A DNA stretch of 13,069 bases, taken from positions 1 to 13,069 of the forward strand of contig JBQTGV010000025.1 of NCBI GenBank assembly GCA_052390515.1, read 5' to 3'. Shown here piece after piece: positions 2,209 to 13,069 of the stretch (positions within the stretch are counted from its first letter, which is position 1; each line of letters starts with the position of its first letter). The translations under genes and the position numbers were made by a program. The stretch is from Candidatus Eiseniibacteriota bacterium. GTDB lineage: Bacteria; ARS69. The notes under the pieces are model-generated. The model did no database searches. It had not been told where the DNA came from and saw only the letters and a program-made list of their open reading frames with translations.

Positions 2209-2241
2209 AAAAGGAAACGGGGAAGGCCGAAGCCTCCCCCG
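2209..2241 (-). terminator. Rho-independent terminator after the TPR-bEBP gene
   Basis: Minus strand reads CGGGGGAGGC-TTCG-GCCTTCCCCG-TTTCCTTTT: a 10-bp stem with one G-U pair, a C(UUCG)G tetraloop and an interrupted U-tract. Confidence 0.8.
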
Positions 2242-2265
2242 CGTAAGATACCGCTCCTCCGGCGA

Positions 2266-4701
2266 TCAGTCGGTGGGGACGTCCCGCCCGTTCGACGACG
2301 ACCGCTCCGTCCCGAGCCCCAGCCTCGCAATCTTCTTGCCGAGCCCCCGGTACGACACGCCGAGGATCTCCGCCGCGCGACGCCGGACGCCCCCGGCCTG
2401 CTCGAGTGCCCGCTGGATCTCCTCGCGCTCGACGTTCTCCATCCGCCCGGCGAGGCCCGACTCGGTCTCGGCCCGGTTCAGCGCGCGCAGCGTGGATCCG
2501 ACCGGCGCGCTGCCCAGGATCGTCGTCGCGTCGAGCTCGACCGCGCCGCGGTTCAGCGCGACGGCCCGGTGCAGCAGCGAGCGCAGCTCGCGGACGTTGC
2601 CCGGCCACGCGTGCCCGATGAGCAGCGCCCAGCCGTCCTCCGAGATCTCCGGAAGGGCGGCGCCCTCCAGCGCGCAGATCTCGGTCAGCAGCGCGCGGGC
2701 GAGCGTGCGAAGATCCTCGACCCGGTTGCGCAGCGCGGGCACCTCGATGATCCCGCACATCAGGCGGTGGTGCAGGTCGGGCAGGAACTTGCCCTCCTCC
2801 ACGCGATGGAACAGGTCGCGGTTCGTCGCGCAGATGATGCGCGCGTCCACCGCGATCGGCCGCGTCGATCCGACCGGACGGATCTCGCGCGCGTCGAGCA
2901 CGTGCAGCAGCTTCGCCTGGAACTCGAGCGACGTCTTGTCGATCTCGTCCAGGAACACCGTGCCGCGCCCGGCCTCACGGAAGATCCCGGCGTGCTCGCG
3001 CTCCGCTCCCGTGAACGCACCCTTGCGATGACCGAAGAGCTCGGACTCCTGCAGGTGCTCGGGGAGCGCCGCGCAGTTGACGGGGTAGAACTCGCCCTGG
3101 TCCCCGCGGCCCAGCTCGTGGATGGCCTCCGCGAGGATCGTCTTGCCGGTGCCGGTCTGGCCGACGAGCAGCAGAGGCAGGCTCGTGGGGCCGAGCTTGC
3201 GGCACTCCTCGAGCGTCGCGCGGAAGGCGGGCGAAGGCCAGTCGGTGGTGAGCACGCGGACTGCTCGCCGGCCGCCGGAATCGGCGCGCCCCGAAGGTCC
3301 GCGGCGATCCGCGTCGAGCCGCGCTTCCGCGGCGCGCACCGCGCCGAGCCCGCCGAGCGCTCCCATCCGGTCGAAGATCCGCCGCGCGGCGGCCAGGTGC
3401 TGGCGGCGCTCGCTGCGGATGGAGTCCGAGTCCGACCCGCACTCCGCGAGCGCGCGGTCCACGGCCAGACAAGTCCAGCCCTGCTCGTACGGAACGGCCA
3501 GGGTCTCCAGGACGGAGAGGCTCTCCCCGAGATCACTGCGCGCTTCCGCCTCGCGCCCGCGCAGAGCGTGCAGCAGACCCCGCGCGCGCAGCGCGAGAGC
3601 GCGCTCCTTGCGCTCGCCGGCGCGCTCCGCGACCAGCACGCTGCGGTCGATCCACGACCCCGCTTCATCCAGCTTTCCGGTCTCGAGCAGCGCGAAGCCG
3701 ATTCGCCACGCCAGCTCGGCGACCAGGTCGCCCTCGGCGGCGATTCCCTCCGCGCGATGCAGCGCGGCGCGGTACTTCTCGAGCGCCCCGCGGACGTTGC
3801 CCGCGGCGAATTCCAGGTCGCCCACGTCCTCCAGCACCAGCACGCGGTCACGCTCCCGCTCGCCGCTCTCGGCGGCCGCCCACGCCCCCACCGCGAGCTC
3901 CCGCGCCGCGTCGAGGCGGCCGGCTTCGCGCAGCGCCCGGCTGGCCGCCAGACGCGCGCTCACCGCGAGGTTCGTGGCACCGGATTCCTCGGCGCTGGCC
4001 AGCGCCCGCATCGCGTGGTTCGCGGCCAGGTCGAGCTGGCCCGACAGCCGCGCCGCGATGGAGAGGTGCAGGTTGTGGCGCGTGATACCGGACTGGTGTC
4101 CGAGAAGCGTCGCGATGTCCAGCGCTTGCTTCCCGTGCGCCATCGCCGCCTCGTACTGCCCCCGCTGGATGCACGCGACGGAAAGGACGCCGTGCGCGTG
4201 ACCCACTTCGCTCTGCAGGCCGGCGTGCCGCGCCTCGGCGAGCGCGCAGTACGCGTTCTCGAACGCTTCCTCGAGCCGGCCGAGCCGCAGCTGGATCATG
4301 GCGAGCCAGCGCAGCGCGGACGTCAGTCCCTCCGGATCCCCGAGACCGCGGAGCGACTCCGCAGCCGTCCGGCAGACCTCTTCGCCGCGGACATAATCCC
4401 CGCGGGAATAAGCGCTGTACCCGCGGACCGATTCGAGCCGGCTGACCATCCGGGGCGAAAGGTTCGGCCGCTCGGAGATCTCGTCGACGATCCGGTCCGC
4501 CTCGTCCGTGAACCCGAGGGCAGCACAGCAGCTCGCCAGACGCCAGCGGACCTCCGCTTCCTCGTCGGGTTCCTGCAGCGCGCCGGTGGCCAGAAGCCCT
4601 TCGAGCTCCTGCCGCGCGAGCGCGTACATGCCGCGCCGGAAGTGCATGGAGGCACGCCGGTATCGGTCGCCCAGGGAAGGGCTCTGCAACCGATACGTCA
4701 T
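2266..4701 (-). CDS. Sigma54-dependent transcriptional activator (bEBP) with N-terminal TPR-like helical repeats, AAA+ domain and Fis-type HTH (811 aa)
   Basis: Walker A GQTGTGKT, 'VNCAAL', 'ESELFGH', intact GAFTGA (3004-3021), Walker B FLDEID and sensor II WPGNVREL. C-terminal HTH 'ALEQAGGVRRRAAEILGVS'. The N-terminal ~460 aa are Ala/Leu-rich helical repeats ('LGRLEEA', 'RGQYEAA', 'SGQLDLA', 'AGRLDAA', 'AGNVRGA', 'TGKLDEA'). No REC, GAF or PAS domain was recognised. Confidence 0.93.
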   Translation of the reverse strand: MTYRLQSPSLGDRYRRASMHFRRGMYALARQELEGLLATGALQEPDEEAEVRWRLASCCAALGFTDEADRIVDEISERPNLSPRMVSRLESVRGYSAYSRGDYVRGEEVCRTAAESLRGLGDPEGLTSALRWLAMIQLRLGRLEEAFENAYCALAEARHAGLQSEVGHAHGVLSVACIQRGQYEAAMAHGKQALDIATLLGHQSGITRHNLHLSIAARLSGQLDLAANHAMRALASAEESGATNLAVSARLAASRALREAGRLDAARELAVGAWAAAESGERERDRVLVLEDVGDLEFAAGNVRGALEKYRAALHRAEGIAAEGDLVAELAWRIGFALLETGKLDEAGSWIDRSVLVAERAGERKERALALRARGLLHALRGREAEARSDLGESLSVLETLAVPYEQGWTCLAVDRALAECGSDSDSIRSERRQHLAAARRIFDRMGALGGLGAVRAAEARLDADRRGPSGRADSGGRRAVRVLTTDWPSPAFRATLEECRKLGPTSLPLLLVGQTGTGKTILAEAIHELGRGDQGEFYPVNCAALPEHLQESELFGHRKGAFTGAEREHAGIFREAGRGTVFLDEIDKTSLEFQAKLLHVLDAREIRPVGSTRPIAVDARIICATNRDLFHRVEEGKFLPDLHHRLMCGIIEVPALRNRVEDLRTLARALLTEICALEGAALPEISEDGWALLIGHAWPGNVRELRSLLHRAVALNRGAVELDATTILGSAPVGSTLRALNRAETESGLAGRMENVEREEIQRALEQAGGVRRRAAEILGVSYRGLGKKIARLGLGTERSSSNGRDVPTD

Positions 4702-4985
4702 GGAGCGGAATCCTCCGCGGGAAGCAGGCCGAGTGCGCGCAGCAGCTCCAGGAGCGCGCGGTACCAGGAGTCGTGGTCCGCCTCGTTCACCGGTGGGGTC
4801 AGGGAGATCCCGTGTCCGGCGAGATCATCCGACCGGACCTCGAGAACCAGGATCTTCTCCGGGTCCGTCGGTTCGCCTTCGTAGTGCTGGATCTCCTCGG
4901 CGGCCGCTGGCCAGACCGTCAGCGCGCCCACGGCGAGCGCGAGGAGGAGAACGGACACGGAGCGTCCGCGTTCGATCCGGAACAT
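4698..4985 (-). CDS. Small hypothetical secreted protein (95 aa) with Sec-type signal peptide
   Basis: From the ATG at 4985: basic n-region MFRIERGR, hydrophobic h-region SVSVLLLALAVGALTVW, and a PAAA|EE cleavage site. AGAAAGG lies ~11 nt upstream. The stop overlaps the bEBP start (ATGA, 4698-4701). The start choice is inferred; the ORF track extends it to 5234. Confidence 0.7.
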   Translation of the reverse strand: MFRIERGRSVSVLLLALAVGALTVWPAAAEEIQHYEGEPTDPEKILVLEVRSDDLAGHGISLTPPVNEADHDSWYRALLELLRALGLLPAEDSAP

Positions 4986-5232
4986 CCGATCAAGCCGCCT
5001 TTCTGGGTGGGGGAACATCCTGCTGCGAGAGCAAGTCGTGGGTCCATTGGATGTCGGCATGAGCGAGCTCTGCTCTGACCGAAGAGATGCGAGCGCCAGT
5101 GCAGGATCGAGCGGTCGGAGAGGAGGCGAGCGCCATGAACTCATCCCATGAGCGAAGGGCCCTCCCGCCTCGGGGGTTGCGGAAGGGGGCCCCCGGTCGG
5201 GGGAACGCGAGAGACTCCGGGAACGTGTGCCC

Positions 5233-5262
5233 ACCGTAGCAACGTGGACCTTTCGGTGTCAA
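5233..5262 (-). promoter_or_regulatory. Sigma70-type promoter candidate for the small-protein/bEBP cassette
   Basis: Perfect TTGACA (5262-5257), an 18-nt spacer, then TG-C-TACGGT (extended -10; hexamer 5238-5233), located in intergenic DNA. Confidence 0.65.
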
Positions 5263-7016: not shown

Positions 7017-8342
7017 ATGAATCGATCCCCCCTGGCACTCTTCGGGACGGCCCTCGCGATCATCGTGACGGCCGTCGTCATCGCATCCCCTGCTCTGGCC
7101 GACCGGCCGACGGCCGAGGTCGGCGTCCTCGGCGGTCTCGTCTTCCCCGACGACGTGCTGATCGGCCACGGTACCGACGCCGATGACGTCACGGTCGGAT
7201 TCGGTCTGAACGGGAACTGGTTCCTGCACGACAACTGGGCGATCTACGCCGACGGCCTTTACACGCCCGCCGGGGGCGCGCGCTTCGGCGACGTGACCGT
7301 TCGGGCGCTGCGCGTGGGCCCGCGGCTCTTCCTGCCGTCGGCGGGCGACCGCGTGCAGTTCTTCCTGAGCCCTGGGATCGGCTGGATGAGCGTCGATCTC
7401 GACGACGCGGACTCCATCAGCCGTCCGTTCCTCTCCGCCGGCTTCGGGCAGCGCTACCTCATCGGCCAGCGGCTCACCGCGCATTGGGAGCTTCGCGGCG
7501 ACGTCACGGCCACCGACAAGGACGATGACGTAGTCGAGCAGTCCATCAGCCAGGGCCATGCCCTCGTTGGGCTATCCTGGAGGTTCGGTGGTGTCTCGAC
7601 CGACGGCGACGCCGACCGGGACGGCGTTCGCGACAGCAGGGACGCGTGCCCGGACACGCCTCGCGGGGCGAAGGTGGACGCGAACGGCTGTCCGCTCGAC
7701 ACCGACGGCGACGGCGTCTGGGACGGGCTCGACCAGTGCCCGGGCACGCCCGCGGGCGCGCGCGTCGACTCCCGCGGCTGCTCGGACTCGGACGGTGACG
7801 GCGTCACCGACGACAAGGACCGCTGCCCGGACACGCCTGCCGGCTGGCCGGTGGATTCGTTCGGTTGCCCGCTCGACACCGACGGCGACGGCGTCGCCGA
7901 CGGCGCGGACGAGTGCCCGAACACGCCGCGCGGCACCGAAGTGGACGCCAAGGGCTGCCCGAAGGTCGCTCAGCTCTTCGAGGTGGACGAGAAGGGACAG
8001 ACGAAGGCGCTGATCCTGCAGGGCGTCAACTTCGAGTACAACAGCGCGAACCTCACCGCGGACTCCCGCGGGGTGCTGGATCGCGTGGCCGAGTCCCTCG
8101 TCGCGTGGCCCGACGTGCGCGTCGAGATCGGCGGCCACACCGATTCGGACGGGTCCGCCGAGTACAACCGTGATCTCTCGCAGCGGCGCTCGGATTCGGT
8201 GCGGGCGTATCTCGTCCAGGCCGGCGTCGGGGAGTCGCGCATGACGACGCGCGGCTACGGCGAGGAGTCGCCGATCGCGACGAACGGCACGCCGGAGGGT
8301 AAGGCGCAGAACCGCCGCGTCGAGCTGAAGAAGATCGACTGA
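7017..8342 (+). CDS. OmpA/OprF-like outer membrane protein: beta-barrel, thrombospondin type-3 repeats and OmpA C-terminal peptidoglycan-binding domain (441 aa)
   Basis: Signal peptide ending ALA|D. Amphipathic beta-strands ending 'VGLSWRF'. Four Asp/Cys repeats. C-terminal motifs 'GVNFEYNSANL', 'VEIGGHTDSDG...YNRDLSQRR', 'GYGE..P' and 'QNRRVE'. Confidence 0.95.
   Translation: MNRSPLALFGTALAIIVTAVVIASPALADRPTAEVGVLGGLVFPDDVLIGHGTDADDVTVGFGLNGNWFLHDNWAIYADGLYTPAGGARFGDVTVRALRVGPRLFLPSAGDRVQFFLSPGIGWMSVDLDDADSISRPFLSAGFGQRYLIGQRLTAHWELRGDVTATDKDDDVVEQSISQGHALVGLSWRFGGVSTDGDADRDGVRDSRDACPDTPRGAKVDANGCPLDTDGDGVWDGLDQCPGTPAGARVDSRGCSDSDGDGVTDDKDRCPDTPAGWPVDSFGCPLDTDGDGVADGADECPNTPRGTEVDAKGCPKVAQLFEVDEKGQTKALILQGVNFEYNSANLTADSRGVLDRVAESLVAWPDVRVEIGGHTDSDGSAEYNRDLSQRRSDSVRAYLVQAGVGESRMTTRGYGEESPIATNGTPEGKAQNRRVELKKID
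7608..7961 (+). repeat. Four tandem ~29-30-aa thrombospondin type-3 (Ca-binding) coding repeats
   Basis: DxDxDGVxDxxDxCPxTPxGxxVDxxGC occurs four times. CCGCTCGACACCGACGGCGACGGCGTC recurs exactly in units 2 and 4. Confidence 0.9.
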
Positions 8343-8422: not shown

Positions 8423-10876
8423 ATGAGCGCCGCCTACGAGAAGCTGGGGGTCTTCTATCTCGGTCGGACCGTGAATCCGGCCGGCGAGGGCGCCGAGCCG
8501 CTGCTCTACGACAGCAAGGACCTCGTGACCCACGCGGTCTGCGTGGGCATGACCGGCAGCGGCAAGACCGGGCTGGGCATCGGGCTGCTGGAGGAAGCCG
8601 CCCTCGACGGCATCCCGGCCATCGCCATCGATCCCAAGGGCGATCTCGGGAACCTGCTGCTCACGTTTCCGGATCTCTCGCCCGCGGACTTTCGCCCCTG
8701 GATCGACGAGGCCGAGGCGGCACGTCTGGGAATGACGTCGGACGCGCTCGCGGCGAACCGGGCCGAGGCGTGGAAGAAGGGCCTGGCCGAGTGGGACCAG
8801 GACGCGGACCGGATCCGTCGCTTCCGCGATTCCACCGGAGCGGTCATCTACACGCCGGGCAGCGACGCCGGCATCCCGCTGCGTGTGCTGCGCTCCTTCG
8901 CCGCGCCGCCCCCCGCGGTGCGGGAGGACGCCGAGCACTTCCGCGAATGCGTGTCGGCCGCCGCCTCCGGGTTGCTGTGCCTGGCAGGCATCGACGCCGA
9001 TCCGGTGACGGGGCGCGAGCACATCCTCCTCGCGAACATCCTCGACCGCGCCTGGCGTGAAGGCGAGGACCTGGATCTGGCGGGCGTGATCCGCAGGATC
9101 CAGAACCCGCCCTTCACCGAGGTCGGCGTCTTCGATCTCGAGTCGTTCTTCCCTGCGAACGAGCGCTTCGCGCTGGCGATGGCGGTGAACCACCTGCTCG
9201 CCTCGCCGGGTTTCGCGGCGTGGATGGAGGGCGAAGCGCTGGACGCCGGGCGACTGCTCTTCGGCCCGGACGGGAAGCCGCGGCTGTCCGTCGTGTCCAT
9301 CGCCCACCTCGGCGAGCGCGAGCGCATGTTCCTCGTGACGATGCTGCTGAACGAGGTCGTGTCGTGGATGCGCTCGCAGCCGGGCACGGGAAGCCTCCGC
9401 GCGATCCTGTACATGGACGAGGTGTTCGGCTATCTCCCGCCGACCGCGAATCCGCCGTCCAAGACGCCGCTGCTCACTCTCCTGAAGCAGGCGCGCGCGT
9501 ACGGCGTCGGAGTCGTGCTCGCGACGCAGAACCCGGTCGACCTGGACTACAAGGCGCTGTCCAACGCGGGCACGTGGTTCCTCGGACGCCTGCAGACCGA
9601 GCGCGACAAGCTGCGCGTGCTGGACGGGCTGGAGGGTGCGTCCGCAGCGGGCGGGCGCGCGTTCGACCGCGCCGGAATGGAGAGGCTGCTCTCCGGTCTC
9701 GGGAGCCGCGTCTTTCTGATGAACGACGTGCACGACGACGCGCCGGTGCTCTTCAAGACGCGATGGACGCTCTCGTACCTCGGCGGTCCGCTCACGCGGG
9801 CGCAGATCGGGCGCCTCATGGCGGGGAGGAAGGCGGCGGCCGGCGGCGTACCCGCTACGGTGACCCCGACCGCGGCGACGGCGGCGGCCGGCGGCGAACG
9901 GCCGGCTCTCCCGCCCGGCATTCCGGAGACGTTCCTCGAGCCCGCCGGCGGCGCCGGAAGCGGAGCGCCGGTCTATCGGCCCGCGCTGCTCGGCCGCGCG
10001 AAGCTGCACTGGGCGTCCGCCGCAGCCGGCGTCGACGAGTGGAAGGACATCGCGCTCCTGTCGCTGTTGCTGGACGGCGTGGAAGAGGATCCCTGGGCGT
10101 CGGCCGAGGAGCTTCCGCCGGGGGCCTCGCTCGGCTCCGCGCCCGTCGAGCCGTGCCGCTTCGCCGATGTTCCAGCGAAGGCCCGCGCCGCCGCCTCGTA
10201 CTCGGCGTGGGCGAAGGCACTCGCCGCGCACCTCTATCAGGACCGGCCTGTCGTGCTGCGGCGCTCCCCTGATCTCCGCCTGACCTCGCGGCCCGGCGAG
10301 GCCGAGGGCGACTTCCGCGCGCGACTCTCTCTGGTTCTCCGGGAGCGCCGCGACGACGCCGTCGCGAAGCTGCGGCAGCGCTACGAGCCGAAGGTGGCGC
10401 AGCTCCAGGAGCGGATCCGTACCGCGGGGCAGCGCGTCGAGCGAGAGAGCGCGCAGAAGAGCCAGCAGCAGCTCTCCACCGCGGTGGCCGTGGGCGCCAC
10501 CGTGCTCGGCGCGCTCTTCGGCCGGAAGAAGCTCTCCGTCGGGACCGTCGGGCGCGCCTCCACGGCGATGCGCAGCGCCGGCCGCGCTCAGCAGGAGGCC
10601 GGTGACGTACAGCGCGCCGAGGAATCCCTCGAAGCGACGCGACAGCGGCTCGCCGCGCTGGAGGAGGAGGTCCGCTCCGAGGTGGCGAAGCTCGAGGGCG
10701 GCGTGGACGCGTCCGCGCTCCCGCTCGAGGAGGTCGTCGTGCGCGCGAAGAAGACCGATCTCGTCGTCCAGCCGGTCGCGCTGGCCTGGACGCCATGGCG
10801 CGCCGGTGCGGAGGGAGCGCTCGTGCCCGACTTCACCCGGGCTTCCGGCGACGACCCGCGTTCCGCCTCCACGTGA
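8423..10876 (+). CDS. HerA/FtsK/VirB4-superfamily P-loop ATPase (DUF87/DUF853-like) with C-terminal coiled coil (817 aa)
   Basis: Walker A GMTGSGKT (8546-8569), 'IDPKGD', Walker B 'LYMDE' and the HerA-type 'LLKQARAYGVGVVLATQNP' motif. GGAGGAGAGG RBS upstream. Confidence 0.88.
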   Translation: MSAAYEKLGVFYLGRTVNPAGEGAEPLLYDSKDLVTHAVCVGMTGSGKTGLGIGLLEEAALDGIPAIAIDPKGDLGNLLLTFPDLSPADFRPWIDEAEAARLGMTSDALAANRAEAWKKGLAEWDQDADRIRRFRDSTGAVIYTPGSDAGIPLRVLRSFAAPPPAVREDAEHFRECVSAAASGLLCLAGIDADPVTGREHILLANILDRAWREGEDLDLAGVIRRIQNPPFTEVGVFDLESFFPANERFALAMAVNHLLASPGFAAWMEGEALDAGRLLFGPDGKPRLSVVSIAHLGERERMFLVTMLLNEVVSWMRSQPGTGSLRAILYMDEVFGYLPPTANPPSKTPLLTLLKQARAYGVGVVLATQNPVDLDYKALSNAGTWFLGRLQTERDKLRVLDGLEGASAAGGRAFDRAGMERLLSGLGSRVFLMNDVHDDAPVLFKTRWTLSYLGGPLTRAQIGRLMAGRKAAAGGVPATVTPTAATAAAGGERPALPPGIPETFLEPAGGAGSGAPVYRPALLGRAKLHWASAAAGVDEWKDIALLSLLLDGVEEDPWASAEELPPGASLGSAPVEPCRFADVPAKARAAASYSAWAKALAAHLYQDRPVVLRRSPDLRLTSRPGEAEGDFRARLSLVLRERRDDAVAKLRQRYEPKVAQLQERIRTAGQRVERESAQKSQQQLSTAVAVGATVLGALFGRKKLSVGTVGRASTAMRSAGRAQQEAGDVQRAEESLEATRQRLAALEEEVRSEVAKLEGGVDASALPLEEVVVRAKKTDLVVQPVALAWTPWRAGAEGALVPDFTRASGDDPRSAST

Positions 10877-10881
10877 GCGGC

Positions 10882-13069
10882 ATGGCCCTGACGCCCGGGG
10901 CGCGCCTGGCCCACTACGAGATCCTCGCCGTCCTCGGGGCCGGTGGCATGGGCGAGGTGTACCGCGCGCGGGACACGCGTCTCGGCCGCGACGTCGCCGT
11001 GAAGGTGCTGCCCGACGCCGTGGCGGCGGATCCCGAGCGCCTCGCCCGATTCGAGCGAGAGGCCCGGGCCGTCGCCGCGCTGAGCCATCCCAACATCGTG
11101 GTGGTCCACTCCATCGAGGAGGGCGGCGGCCTCCATTTCCTGACCATGGAGTTCGTGGACGGCCAGACGCTGGACGCGCTGATCGTTCCCGGTGGGCTGC
11201 CGTTCGAGCGGGTTCTCGGGCTCGTCGTCCCGCTCGCCGAGGCGATGGCCACGGCCCACGAGCACGGAATCGTGCACCGCGACCTCAAGCCACAGAACGT
11301 CATGGTGACGCGCGACGGTCGCGTGAAGGTCCTCGACTTCGGTCTCGCCAAGCTGGCCGCGGCCGATGATCCGGATCCAGGCGCCAGCGGTGTCAGCGCG
11401 GCGCCCACCGTCGCCGCGAACACGAGATGGGGACAGGTGGTCGGGACCGTCCCGTACATGGCTCCGGAGCAGCTCCGCGGCGAAGCGGTCGACGCCAGGG
11501 CCGACCTCTTCGCCCTGGGCATCATCGCCTACGAGCTGGCCACGGGGCGATCGCCCTTCACCGGCGCGACGCGCGCGGACCGCACCTCGTCCATCCTGCG
11601 CGACGCTCCGGATCCGATCACGAGTCATCGCTCGGACCTTCCCGGCGGTCTCGACCGGATCGTGGGGCGCTGTCTCGAGAAGGACCCGCACCGGCGATTC
11701 GAGGCCGCGCGCGAGGTCGCCGCGGAGCTGCGCGGCTTGCAGGCGGCACCGGGCAGGGCGGGCGACGAAGGCGACGCCGTCGTCCGCTCCCTCGCCGTGC
11801 TACCGCTGGAGAACGTTTCCCGCGATCCGGCGCAGGAGTACTTCGCCGTCGGGATGACCGAAGCGCTCATCTCCGACCTCGCGCGGCTGCCCGATCTGCG
11901 CGTGATCTCCCGCACCAGCGCGATGAAGTACAAGGGCGTGCACCGGGCGCTGCCCGAAATCGCGCGCGAGCTGAACGTCGACGCCATCATCGAGGGCACG
12001 GCGCTTCTGGTCGGCAAGCGCGTGCGTATCCACGTGCAGCTCGTGTCCGCGCGGCGCGACGAGACTCTGTGGAGCGATCGATACGACCGTGACCTCGAGG
12101 ACGTGCTGGATCTGCAGAGCAGCGTGGCCGAGGCGGTCGCGCGGGAGATCGCGCTGCGCCTCCCCGCGCGCGACACGCGGCGCCTGGCGCGGCGGCAGGA
12201 GGTGAACCCGGAGGCGCACGTCGAATACCTCAAGGGCCTGCACACCGCGGCCGCGACGTCGCCCGAGGCGATCGACCTCTCCCTCAAGCACTTCCAGCGG
12301 GCGCTGGAGCTGGATCCGACGTTCGCGCCCGCCTGGGCCGGTGTCGCCGAGTGCCACTACACCCGCGCCGGCCGTGGAATGGCGCCGCCGGCCGAGGCGC
12401 GGGAACTCGCCCGGGCCGCGGCGATGAAGGCGCTGCACTTGGACGAAGCGCTCGCGGACGCCCATGTCGTGCTGGGCGCGCTCGCCGCCCGCGAGCTGGA
12501 CTTCGCGGGGGCGATTCGCTGGCTCCGGAGGGCCGTCGAGCTGAACCCGGGGCTGTCTTCTGCCCACTACACGCTCGGGCGAATCTACTACTGCAGCGAG
12601 CGCCACGCCGAGGCGGAAGCGGCGATGCTCGAGGCCCTGAGCCTCGACCCTCTCTCGATGATCATCCATACGGCCGTCGGCGACGCGTACTACTACGCTC
12701 GCGAGTACGAGAAGTCGGTGGCGTACTACCGCAAGGCCATCCGCCTCGATCCGCGCTTCGACGGCGCGCACACCGATCTCGCGCGCTCGCTGGAGGCGCT
12801 CGGCCGCTTCGACGAGGCCCGCGCGGAGTACGAGGAGGGACGGCGGCTGGCGGGCACCGTCGCCGGCCCGTCGTTCGGCCTGGCGCACCTGGAGATCAGC
12901 CGGGGCAACCCGGACGCGGCGCGTCGCATGCTCGCCGAGCTGACCGCGGCGCGCTCGCAGCGCGTCGTGTCCGCGTGGGGAATCGCCGTGCTGCATGCCA
13001 GCCTCGGGGAGGCGGACGAGGCCTTCCGCTGGCTCGAGGCCGCCATGGACGAGGGCGCGAGCGGGCTCA
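10882..13069 (+). CDS. Hanks-type Ser/Thr protein kinase with TolB-like domain and TPR repeats (partial, at least 729 aa, 3' end outside window)
   Basis: Hand translation from the ATG at 10882 gives GAGGMGEVY, VAVK, HPNIV, HRDLKPQN, DFG, GTVPYMAPE and DLFALG. These are followed by 'SLAVLPLEN...EYFAVGMTEALISDL' (TolB-like) and TPRs ('FQRALELDP', 'AVELNP', 'AIRLDP'). The frame stays open to the window end, so it is absent from the ORF track. Confidence 0.95.
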   Translation, partial: MALTPGARLAHYEILAVLGAGGMGEVYRARDTRLGRDVAVKVLPDAVAADPERLARFEREARAVAALSHPNIVVVHSIEEGGGLHFLTMEFVDGQTLDALIVPGGLPFERVLGLVVPLAEAMATAHEHGIVHRDLKPQNVMVTRDGRVKVLDFGLAKLAAADDPDPGASGVSAAPTVAANTRWGQVVGTVPYMAPEQLRGEAVDARADLFALGIIAYELATGRSPFTGATRADRTSSILRDAPDPITSHRSDLPGGLDRIVGRCLEKDPHRRFEAAREVAAELRGLQAAPGRAGDEGDAVVRSLAVLPLENVSRDPAQEYFAVGMTEALISDLARLPDLRVISRTSAMKYKGVHRALPEIARELNVDAIIEGTALLVGKRVRIHVQLVSARRDETLWSDRYDRDLEDVLDLQSSVAEAVAREIALRLPARDTRRLARRQEVNPEAHVEYLKGLHTAAATSPEAIDLSLKHFQRALELDPTFAPAWAGVAECHYTRAGRGMAPPAEARELARAAAMKALHLDEALADAHVVLGALAARELDFAGAIRWLRRAVELNPGLSSAHYTLGRIYYCSERHAEAEAAMLEALSLDPLSMIIHTAVGDAYYYAREYEKSVAYYRKAIRLDPRFDGAHTDLARSLEALGRFDEARAEYEEGRRLAGTVAGPSFGLAHLEISRGNPDAARRMLAELTAARSQRVVSAWGIAVLHASLGEADEAFRWLEAAMDEGASGL

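Follow-up and report, generated by a model that had tools for sequence, protein, structure and literature searches.

Activators of σ54-dependent transcription, the bacterial enhancer-binding proteins (bEBPs), usually take phosphorylation or small molecules as their input, through REC, GAF or PAS domains. The σ54 activators of the PspF-PspA, HrpS-HrpV, FhlA-HycA and NifA-NifL pairs are controlled by trans-acting protein regulators, which are cytoplasmic or lie on the inner membrane face and act on the AAA+ module or on other sensor domains; we know of none of these regulators that is exported by Sec, and of none of these activators that takes its input through tetratricopeptide repeats (TPRs). 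In the RRNPP systems (Rap-Phr, NprR-NprX, PlcR-PapR, AimR-AimP), the gene for a cytoplasmic TPR receptor, built with an XRE-type HTH at its N-terminus or with a phosphatase surface, directly adjoins that for a small Sec-type precursor, and several diverged pairs occur per genome. The excerpted text of PMC10075063 frames cytoplasmic TPR receptors for exported peptides as a speciality of Firmicutes and phages, and the detector that it describes looks for a Sec-secreted propeptide of 10-100 amino acids (aa) encoded as the direct neighbor of a receptor of 250-500 aa with peptide-binding TPRs. Here we analyze a stretch of 13,069 nucleotides (nt), hereafter the window, from a Candidatus Eiseniibacteriota bacterium (contig JBQTGV010000025.1), which carries on its minus strand a two-gene cassette in which a 95-aa predicted exported-protein precursor overlaps the start of an 811-aa σ54 activator with a TPR input region.

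This cassette may well hold a signal-receptor pair such as has to date been reported from Gram-positive bacteria alone, and its two genes probably work together in some way. That the small protein is an exported signal and the TPR activator its cognate cytoplasmic receptor is a reading we hold tentatively, at slightly under an even chance, from the sequence evidence set out below. Linkage across four old clades, a motif that tracks the activator clades, structural relatives that bind peptides and an exported partner that is predicted to be disordered and has a single short invariant motif together make it the best reading. An earlier note on this DNA had proposed a peptide-sensing or quorum-like system with a σ54 output. 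The linked exported ORF, the motif that follows the clades and four of the five features of the RRNPP signature (PMC10075063, in excerpt) speak for that proposal, among them Sec export as predicted from hand-made features; sequence membership in RRNPP and receptor length speak against it, the activator having 811 aa against 250-500 aa, and its TPR part alone about 460 aa. A screen restricted to receptors of 250-500 aa, as in the excerpted detector description (PMC10075063), would miss this family. The elements that the earlier note had read in the cassette, namely a promoter, a 95-aa open reading frame (ORF) with a signal peptide, an ATGA overlap, an activator with TPRs and a GAFTGA-containing AAA+/HTH module, and a terminator, are all confirmed, the promoter at the place it had given.

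Sequence comparisons indicate that the exported protein and the TPR activator are inherited as a pair across the phylum, with several diverged copies per genome. The genome set for the phylum comprises 12 genomes, all of one family. Full-length activator orthologues, at 57-66% identity, are present in 10 of the 11 other genomes, and the genome that has none is 73% complete. Searched with the small protein, nine of ten orthologous loci show a match immediately 5′ of the activator, a count that frame reading raises to ten of ten, and at all ten orthologous loci the stop of the small ORF lies between −3 and +4 nt from the activator start. When TPR-activator loci of four clades were extracted automatically from the 12 genomes, a small ORF adjoined the activator in 38 of 38; these are 11 loci of clade A, to which the window belongs, and 27 paralogue loci (10, then 18 fetched, with L062 dropped because the stretch retrieved shows no activator motif), and long-N-terminus GAFTGA frames on contigs C56 and C62 of the window's genome stand outside the pair counts. 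Consistent upstream placement of a small signal-peptide ORF, which the earlier note had made a test of its proposal, is thus found at every orthologous locus and at all 38 loci in total, and in a tree of the activators the motif variants of the small protein go with the four clades. A further small ORF of clade A type (L034, G002:C20:3843-4040; 48% identity to the small protein of the window, E 1.9e-7) stands where a contig of 4,177 nt ends.

Among 289 genomes of other families, a search with the full-length activator, which would miss TPR activators whose TPRs cannot be aligned, gave just two matches with E values of 1e-68 or better, and neither extends beyond the AAA+ part into the TPRs. A pattern search for related loci with the activator gave 600 pattern matches with no relative among them, and a search for such loci with the TPR alignment gave nine public loci, all from the same lineage and all from metagenome-assembled genomes. 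Contigs 85-94% alike from a soil metatranscriptome cover 4776-5158 and parts of the activator; they derive from relatives in the RNA library and show neither transcription nor a 5′ end. Parts of the stretch are also contained in DNA runs that have sediment, soil and freshwater as their labels.

All genomes of the phylum carry additional TPR activators at 34-37% identity, which brings the number of diverged pairs to three to five per genome; the window's genome has three, on contigs C25, C214 and C122. A small ORF of like build lies 5′ of the activator in 10 of 10 and then 17 of 17 paralogue loci. The shared build opens with an n-region of positive charge and a hydrophobic core, followed by a small-x-small site; the [GSN][DE]Pxx(x)P motif comes 1-24 residues past the cleavage site picked by script, and a variable linker then leads to an amphipathic helix, rich in W and R/L, at the very end of the protein. 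The motif is present in 36 of the 38 small proteins, and the other two read GEPTDL. In a tree of the 38 activators there are four clades, each with its own [DE]PxxP variant. Clade A has GEPTDP, activators of 800-815 aa and genes that overlap or abut. Clade B has SDPW[RV]P or [NS][DE]PEVP and activators of about 770-790 aa that lie 3′ of an MgtE-like gene, again with overlapping genes. Clade C (L045-L053, and in the window's genome C203:1180 and C122:about 19050-21706) combines GDPDxP with activators of about 1030 aa that are built as TPR-GAF-AAA+-HTH_8, have GAFTDA or GSFTDA in the loop and are separated from the small ORF by a gap of about 77-123 nt. Clade D shows mixed GDPxxP motifs, activators of 726-790 aa and a spacing of −4 to 143 nt. 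At one clade D locus (L056, G007:C9), two tandem small exported ORFs precede a single activator, and at clade C loci two more conserved small genes, one coding for a membrane protein of two helices and the other for a protein with a signal peptide, lie 5′ of the small ORF.

So persistent a pairing bears on the possibility that the two proteins are co-expressed without touching, the small protein having a job of its own in the periplasm or on a membrane surface and being made at a fixed ratio to an activator whose TPRs bind an unrelated cytoplasmic protein. TPR domains do bind partners of many kinds, and the genome is rich in TPR-bearing kinases, one of them starting at 10795 in the window. Co-expression alone sits poorly, however, with a pairing kept in 38 of 38 loci through four clades whose activators have diverged to 34-37% identity, and with the distribution of the small genes, which were found only beside TPR activators. 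A genome-wide filter for a signal peptide, [DE]PxxP and a W-containing C-terminus passed four of the 29,504 frames of at least 70 aa in the window's genome: two small genes beside TPR activators, which are thus both of the two true passes, and two false positives, which are polytopic membrane proteins; the filter missed the third pair, on C214. We consider co-expression without contact quite unlikely.

The small ORF (4985-4698) encodes 95 aa in the window and 85-112 aa among the 11 clade A proteins. Its predicted signal peptide spans residues 1-29 (4899-4985), with a putative cleavage site between AAA and EE; signal-peptide calls rest on hand-made features, namely the charge of the n-region, a hydrophobic core and a small-x-small site picked by script, and by these features 37 of the 38 family members have a net-positive n-region, all 38 a hydrophobic core and each a pickable site. 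The GEPTDP motif follows at residues 37-42 (4860-4877). In an alignment of 50 sequences, with a mean column identity of 36%, G37, P39 and T40 are invariant, and at least 90% of the sequences have E38, D41, P42, W74, L82 and G86. Within clade A, the 11 small proteins are less conserved than their activators (43% versus 74% mean column identity), and what they retain is the signal peptide, an invariant G-E-P-T-D block, the W and the LL..LGL pattern. The ratio of nonsynonymous to synonymous substitution rates is 0.05-0.51, below 1 in 10 of 10 pairs; by these comparisons the small ORF is conserved, under purifying selection and more than a chance ORF. Public databases hold few relatives and no names for them. 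A profile search with a hidden Markov model against 1.84 billion representatives recovered 52 proteins, none longer than 181 aa; a word-based search gave 35 matches, all "hypothetical"; clade B small proteins searched against a set of 5.8 billion proteins gave 19 clusters, again all "hypothetical". The small protein matches no Pfam or NCBIfam family, and no Pfam domain was found in the 35 word-search matches.

The mature clade A proteins are acidic, with a charge of −4 to −19, whereas in clades B-D the C-termini are basic, with charges of +1 to +7 and one exception among 27. The AlphaFold2 model of the small protein (mean predicted local distance difference test score, pLDDT, 68.5) contains helices at residues 6-22, within the signal peptide, at 52-57, a short one, and at 68-84. 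The last of these (4734-4784; pattern W..LL.LL..LGL; block pLDDT about 79-85) is the C-terminal amphipathic helix, the single element common to all four clades; the best C-terminal 14-mer has a median hydrophobic moment of 0.64 over the 38 proteins, and the conserved helix stops 5-11 residues ahead of the stop codon. The remainder of the protein is predicted to be disordered, as would be expected for a linear-motif ligand.

The activator (2266-4701) has the attributes of a bEBP. Pfam assigns TPR_12, TPR_2 and TPR_MalT to about residues 20-400, Sigma54_activat (PF00158, E 2.1e-55) to residues 490-649 (2755-3234), AAA_lid_14, and the Fis-type DNA-binding domain HTH_8 (PF02954, E 1.6e-11) to residues 754-793 (2323-2442); the AAA+ core contains the GAFTGA loop at residues 561-566 (3004-3021), and the genome has one rpoN (Sigma54_DBD, E 1.4e-64). 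In NCBIfam, only the AAA+/HTH part of named activators is matched, always far under the cut-offs, and nothing is found for the N-terminus; automatic annotations call the protein a "sigma 54-interacting transcriptional regulator" or an "NtrC family response regulator/TPR repeat protein". The sole input domain is a predicted TPR superhelix of 23 helices between residues 10 and 466 (3304-4674), modeled at a mean pLDDT of 92.2 and a predicted template modeling score of 0.88, with 74% mean column identity and many invariant Arg residues among the orthologues. Foldseek with this model places LGN/Pins at the top (E about 1e-8) and phage Rap at rank 26. Fold-comparison scores are 27.9 for APPBP2, 27.7 for LGN, 27.0 for NprR, 26.9 for MalT domain III, 26.7 for an APC subunit and 22-23 for AimR. 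Rap and NprR are thus among the best fold matches of the TPR domain, at about 11% identity in the fold alignments. The model therefore points to a long peptide-binding TPR superhelix of Rap/NprR shape, not to homology: a phmmer search of the PDB sequences returned only Pins and MamA, and no Rap, NprR, PlcR, PrgX, Rgg or AimR, and no RRNPP receptor family of Pfam reached E 0.01 or better in the activator. The architecture also differs from that of the SUPR/TPR STAND ATPases of the MalT type, in that the ATPase is a σ54-type AAA+ with GAFTGA rather than NACHT/STAND, the TPRs are N-terminal, so that the domain order is reversed, and MalT takes a sugar as its ligand and has no co-encoded exported partner.

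At the junction of the two genes, the TGA of the small ORF (4700-4698) shares three bases with the ATG of the activator (4701-4699) in a 4-nt ATGA overlap, and the Shine-Dalgarno GGAGGA of the activator (4711-4716) lies within the last codons of the small ORF, which explains the G/E/D-rich tails of the small proteins. Translational coupling of this kind would bring both nascent proteins together on one mRNA, and it lends some appeal to a secretion-coupled partner switch, in which the nascent precursor, still in the cytoplasm, would bind the TPR domain, perhaps by way of its C-terminal amphipathic helix, and keep the activator off (or on) until Sec export takes the precursor away; export flux, and not cell density, would then be what the activator reports. 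In type III secretion, TPR chaperones double as co-activators once the secreted partner leaves, and we count this precedent for the switch, together with the presence of the amphipathic helix in all four clades and the fact that no re-import across two membranes would be needed. Yet a general export sensor would hardly call for three to five diverged pairs in each genome, the clade-specific [DE]PxxP by the cleavage site is left without a role, and the clade C genes do not overlap, being about 77-123 nt apart. On balance we regard this switch as unlikely.

The same junction recalls SecM, VemP, MifM and CutF, where, according to the excerpts at hand (PMC7897499, PMC5449182, PMC11470409, PMC9973294), an upstream small ORF with an export signal places a conserved C-terminal segment by a regulated start. 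The cassette could by analogy act in cis as a nascent exported sensor: co-translational export of the small protein would set the supply of ribosomes to the activator start, the exposed motif and a stalling segment at the C-terminus serving to sense export, and the TPRs would read another ligand. The order of elements, from signal peptide through an early-exposed motif and a conserved C-terminal segment to a downstream start, is that of CutF (PMC9973294, in excerpt), and the conserved helix ends only 5-11 residues short of the stop. Unlike those systems, though, the cassette has overlapping starts and no structured spacer, and what lies downstream is a transcription activator, not an export or metal-homeostasis component. 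In the minimum-free-energy folds of ten orthologous junctions, which differ from one another, no shared stem-loop is seen that would shield the ribosome-binding site of the activator, and no known arrest motif (RAPP, GIRAGP) occurs in the 50 sequences. A ribosome stalled at an ATGA overlap would, moreover, cover the start codon, and the clade-specific motif, the 460-aa TPR sensor and its Rap-like fold would go unexplained. All this makes a cis-acting sensor very unlikely.

Expression of the cassette would begin at a σ70-type promoter candidate (5233-5262) formed by TTGACA at 5262-5257, an 18-nt spacer and a TG-extended −10 element, TACGGT, at 5238-5233. The layout TTGAC[AT], 17-18 nt, TAnnnT is kept at an equal place in nine of 11 loci (the window and ten orthologous loci), and the other two have the −10 element only; a strict consensus scan of the window found no promoter, because the −10 element matches in only three of six positions. 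We predict that a single transcript of both genes starts here, with a putative 5′ leader of about 240 nt (4986-5226) as defined by alignment of orthologous upstream regions. Near its 5′ end, the leader has a conserved GTTCCCGG block together with a C-run. A GCCGACATCC block is conserved some 70 nt ahead of the ATG, as is the ribosome-binding region of the small ORF, AGAAAGGCGG (4995-5004), which ends 9 nt 5′ of the ATG and is invariant in ten aligned orthologous upstream regions bar one first-base difference. No Rfam family matches the leader over threshold (the sole match being M23 RNA at E 0.68), and RNAalifold gives a weak structure of −6 kcal/mol with no covariation. A CCGCU block near the 5′ end of the leader could pair with GGCGG of the ribosome-binding region; both sides are invariant and so show no covariation. 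The operon would end at a putative intrinsic terminator (2217-2242), found by scan, with an 11-pair stem that includes eight G-C pairs and a T-rich tail. Hairpins with T runs, read by eye, follow the orthologue at three other loci (L025, L026 and L027), and the sequence 3′ of the clade A operon varies between genomes.

The targets of the clade A activators seem to lie elsewhere, as no −24/−12 site is found above chance in the window or beside clade A genes. A search of the window gave five matches with at most two mismatches against 8.35 expected by chance, none of them sensibly placed; upstream of 21 small ORFs, one locus scored 9 and one scored 8, neither being conserved; and 3′ of ten clade A orthologues nothing rose above 7 of 11. 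The paralogues are more forthcoming. In nine of nine clade C loci, TGGCA(C/T)-N5-(C/G)TGC(A/G) lies just 3′ of the activator on the same strand and is followed by a conserved leader; in the three loci where it is resolved, the next genes have N-terminal parts that are alike, with Pfam Sigma70 regions 1.2, 2, 3 and 4 recognized at L045, and the same arrangement occurs on C203 of the window's genome. Clade C may thus form a cascade from the activator through σ54 to a second sigma factor. A cascade of activator, σ54 and second sigma factor is also described, in excerpt, for Rrp2-RpoN-RpoS of Borrelia (PMC4014564), a likeness limited to clade C, whose input is a TPR and a GAF domain with an exported small partner and not a receiver domain. 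In five clade B loci (among L039, L041, L042, L057, L058 and L061), a weaker −24/−12 site after the activator precedes a conserved, hairpin-rich leader of about 400 nt that has no match in Rfam and may be an undescribed σ54-dependent leader or small RNA; beyond it lie a gene for a secreted protein of about 330 aa and then recO. These downstream −24/−12 promoters in clades B and C make the paralogue activators look functional. Across the window's genome there are 37 strong −24/−12 candidates, several of which precede genes for signal-peptide proteins or genes resembling those of a pilin and a flagellar rod protein; no candidate was linked to the window's activator.

How might a signal and its receptor operate in such a cassette? 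We posit that the 95-aa precursor, translationally coupled to the cytoplasmic σ54 activator through the ATGA overlap, would be exported by Sec and cleaved after AAA, and that the mature product, about 66 aa long, would be acidic and for the most part disordered. The mature protein or, more likely, a fragment that contains the clade-specific [DE]PxxP would be the ligand of the TPR superhelix, and its binding would alter the restraint, or the permission, that the TPRs impose on assembly of the AAA+ ring, thereby switching σ54-dependent promoters. The presence of rpoN and of six genes for Opp-type binding proteins in the genome supports this reading, and we count in its favor the contrast between a conserved Arg-rich TPR domain and an acidic small partner. 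The six Opp-type genes (SBP_bac_5, each over the family cut-off) also mean that peptide uptake may be possible.

Several points weigh against a signal-receptor pair. With about 66 aa, the mature protein far exceeds known RRNPP signals in size, the motif that it conserves best lies near the N-terminus and not the C-terminus, and there is no sequence relation to the RRNPP families. The cassette departs from RRNPP in other respects as well: its output is an AAA+ σ54 activator with a C-terminal Fis-type HTH, its precursor gene is upstream and translationally coupled, and its host is an uncultured lineage with outer-membrane proteins. A returning peptide would need to cross two membranes, the outer one being suggested by a gene at 7017-8342 (plus strand), whose product, a beta-barrel protein of the outer membrane, has an OmpA domain and thrombospondin type 3 repeats. 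With a σ70-type promoter and no −24/−12 site, no σ54 autoinduction loop is visible. Linked genes may co-diversify by shared descent, so that tracking of the clades by the motif is no proof of contact. The proposed pair resembles PspF-PspA, HrpS-HrpV, FhlA-HycA and NifA-NifL in that control of the σ54 activator would fall to a co-encoded protein and not to phosphorylation or to a domain for small molecules.

A bolder version of the signal-receptor reading would have each cell of this uncultured, outer-membrane-bearing phylum run three to five orthogonal peptide channels, in which a clade-specific [DE]PxxP code is read by Rap-like TPR-σ54 activators; we find this conceivable but rather doubtful. 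The outputs would include a second sigma factor in clade C and a long conserved RNA leader in clade B, and the family as a whole would correspond to RRNPP, by convergence or as a very distant relative, outside Firmicutes and with an ATP-driven transcriptional output. Search listings of the literature contained no description of a σ54 activator with TPR input and an exported partner. If the signal-receptor reading is true, it would extend peptide or protein signaling to a poorly known, uncultured phylum and add a new type of input to the enhancer-binding proteins. It would also provide natural sets of orthogonal signals and receptors, directly testable in a heterologous host because two clades have their targets adjacent.

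The surroundings of the cassette speak to its mode of inheritance. The earlier note had taken it for a portable module set among unrelated genes; conserved synteny rules out a portable cassette, and the pair, on the evidence of gene order, is vertically inherited. A gene for a cytoplasmic-looking FKBP lies upstream on the same strand in nine of ten orthologous loci, with a GT4 gene beyond it in three (61-64% identity) and a weaker or differently placed GT4 in two more. A gene for an 817-aa P-loop protein adjoins the cassette in four orthologous loci (57-62% identity), and MatE lies downstream in two loci and in the window. In the window, the 817-aa protein is encoded at 8423-10876 (plus strand) and has only a weak P-loop match of the HerA/FtsK type; the 3′ end of its gene shares about 80 nt with the start of a gene for a Ser/Thr kinase with C-terminal TPRs (10795-13068, plus strand).

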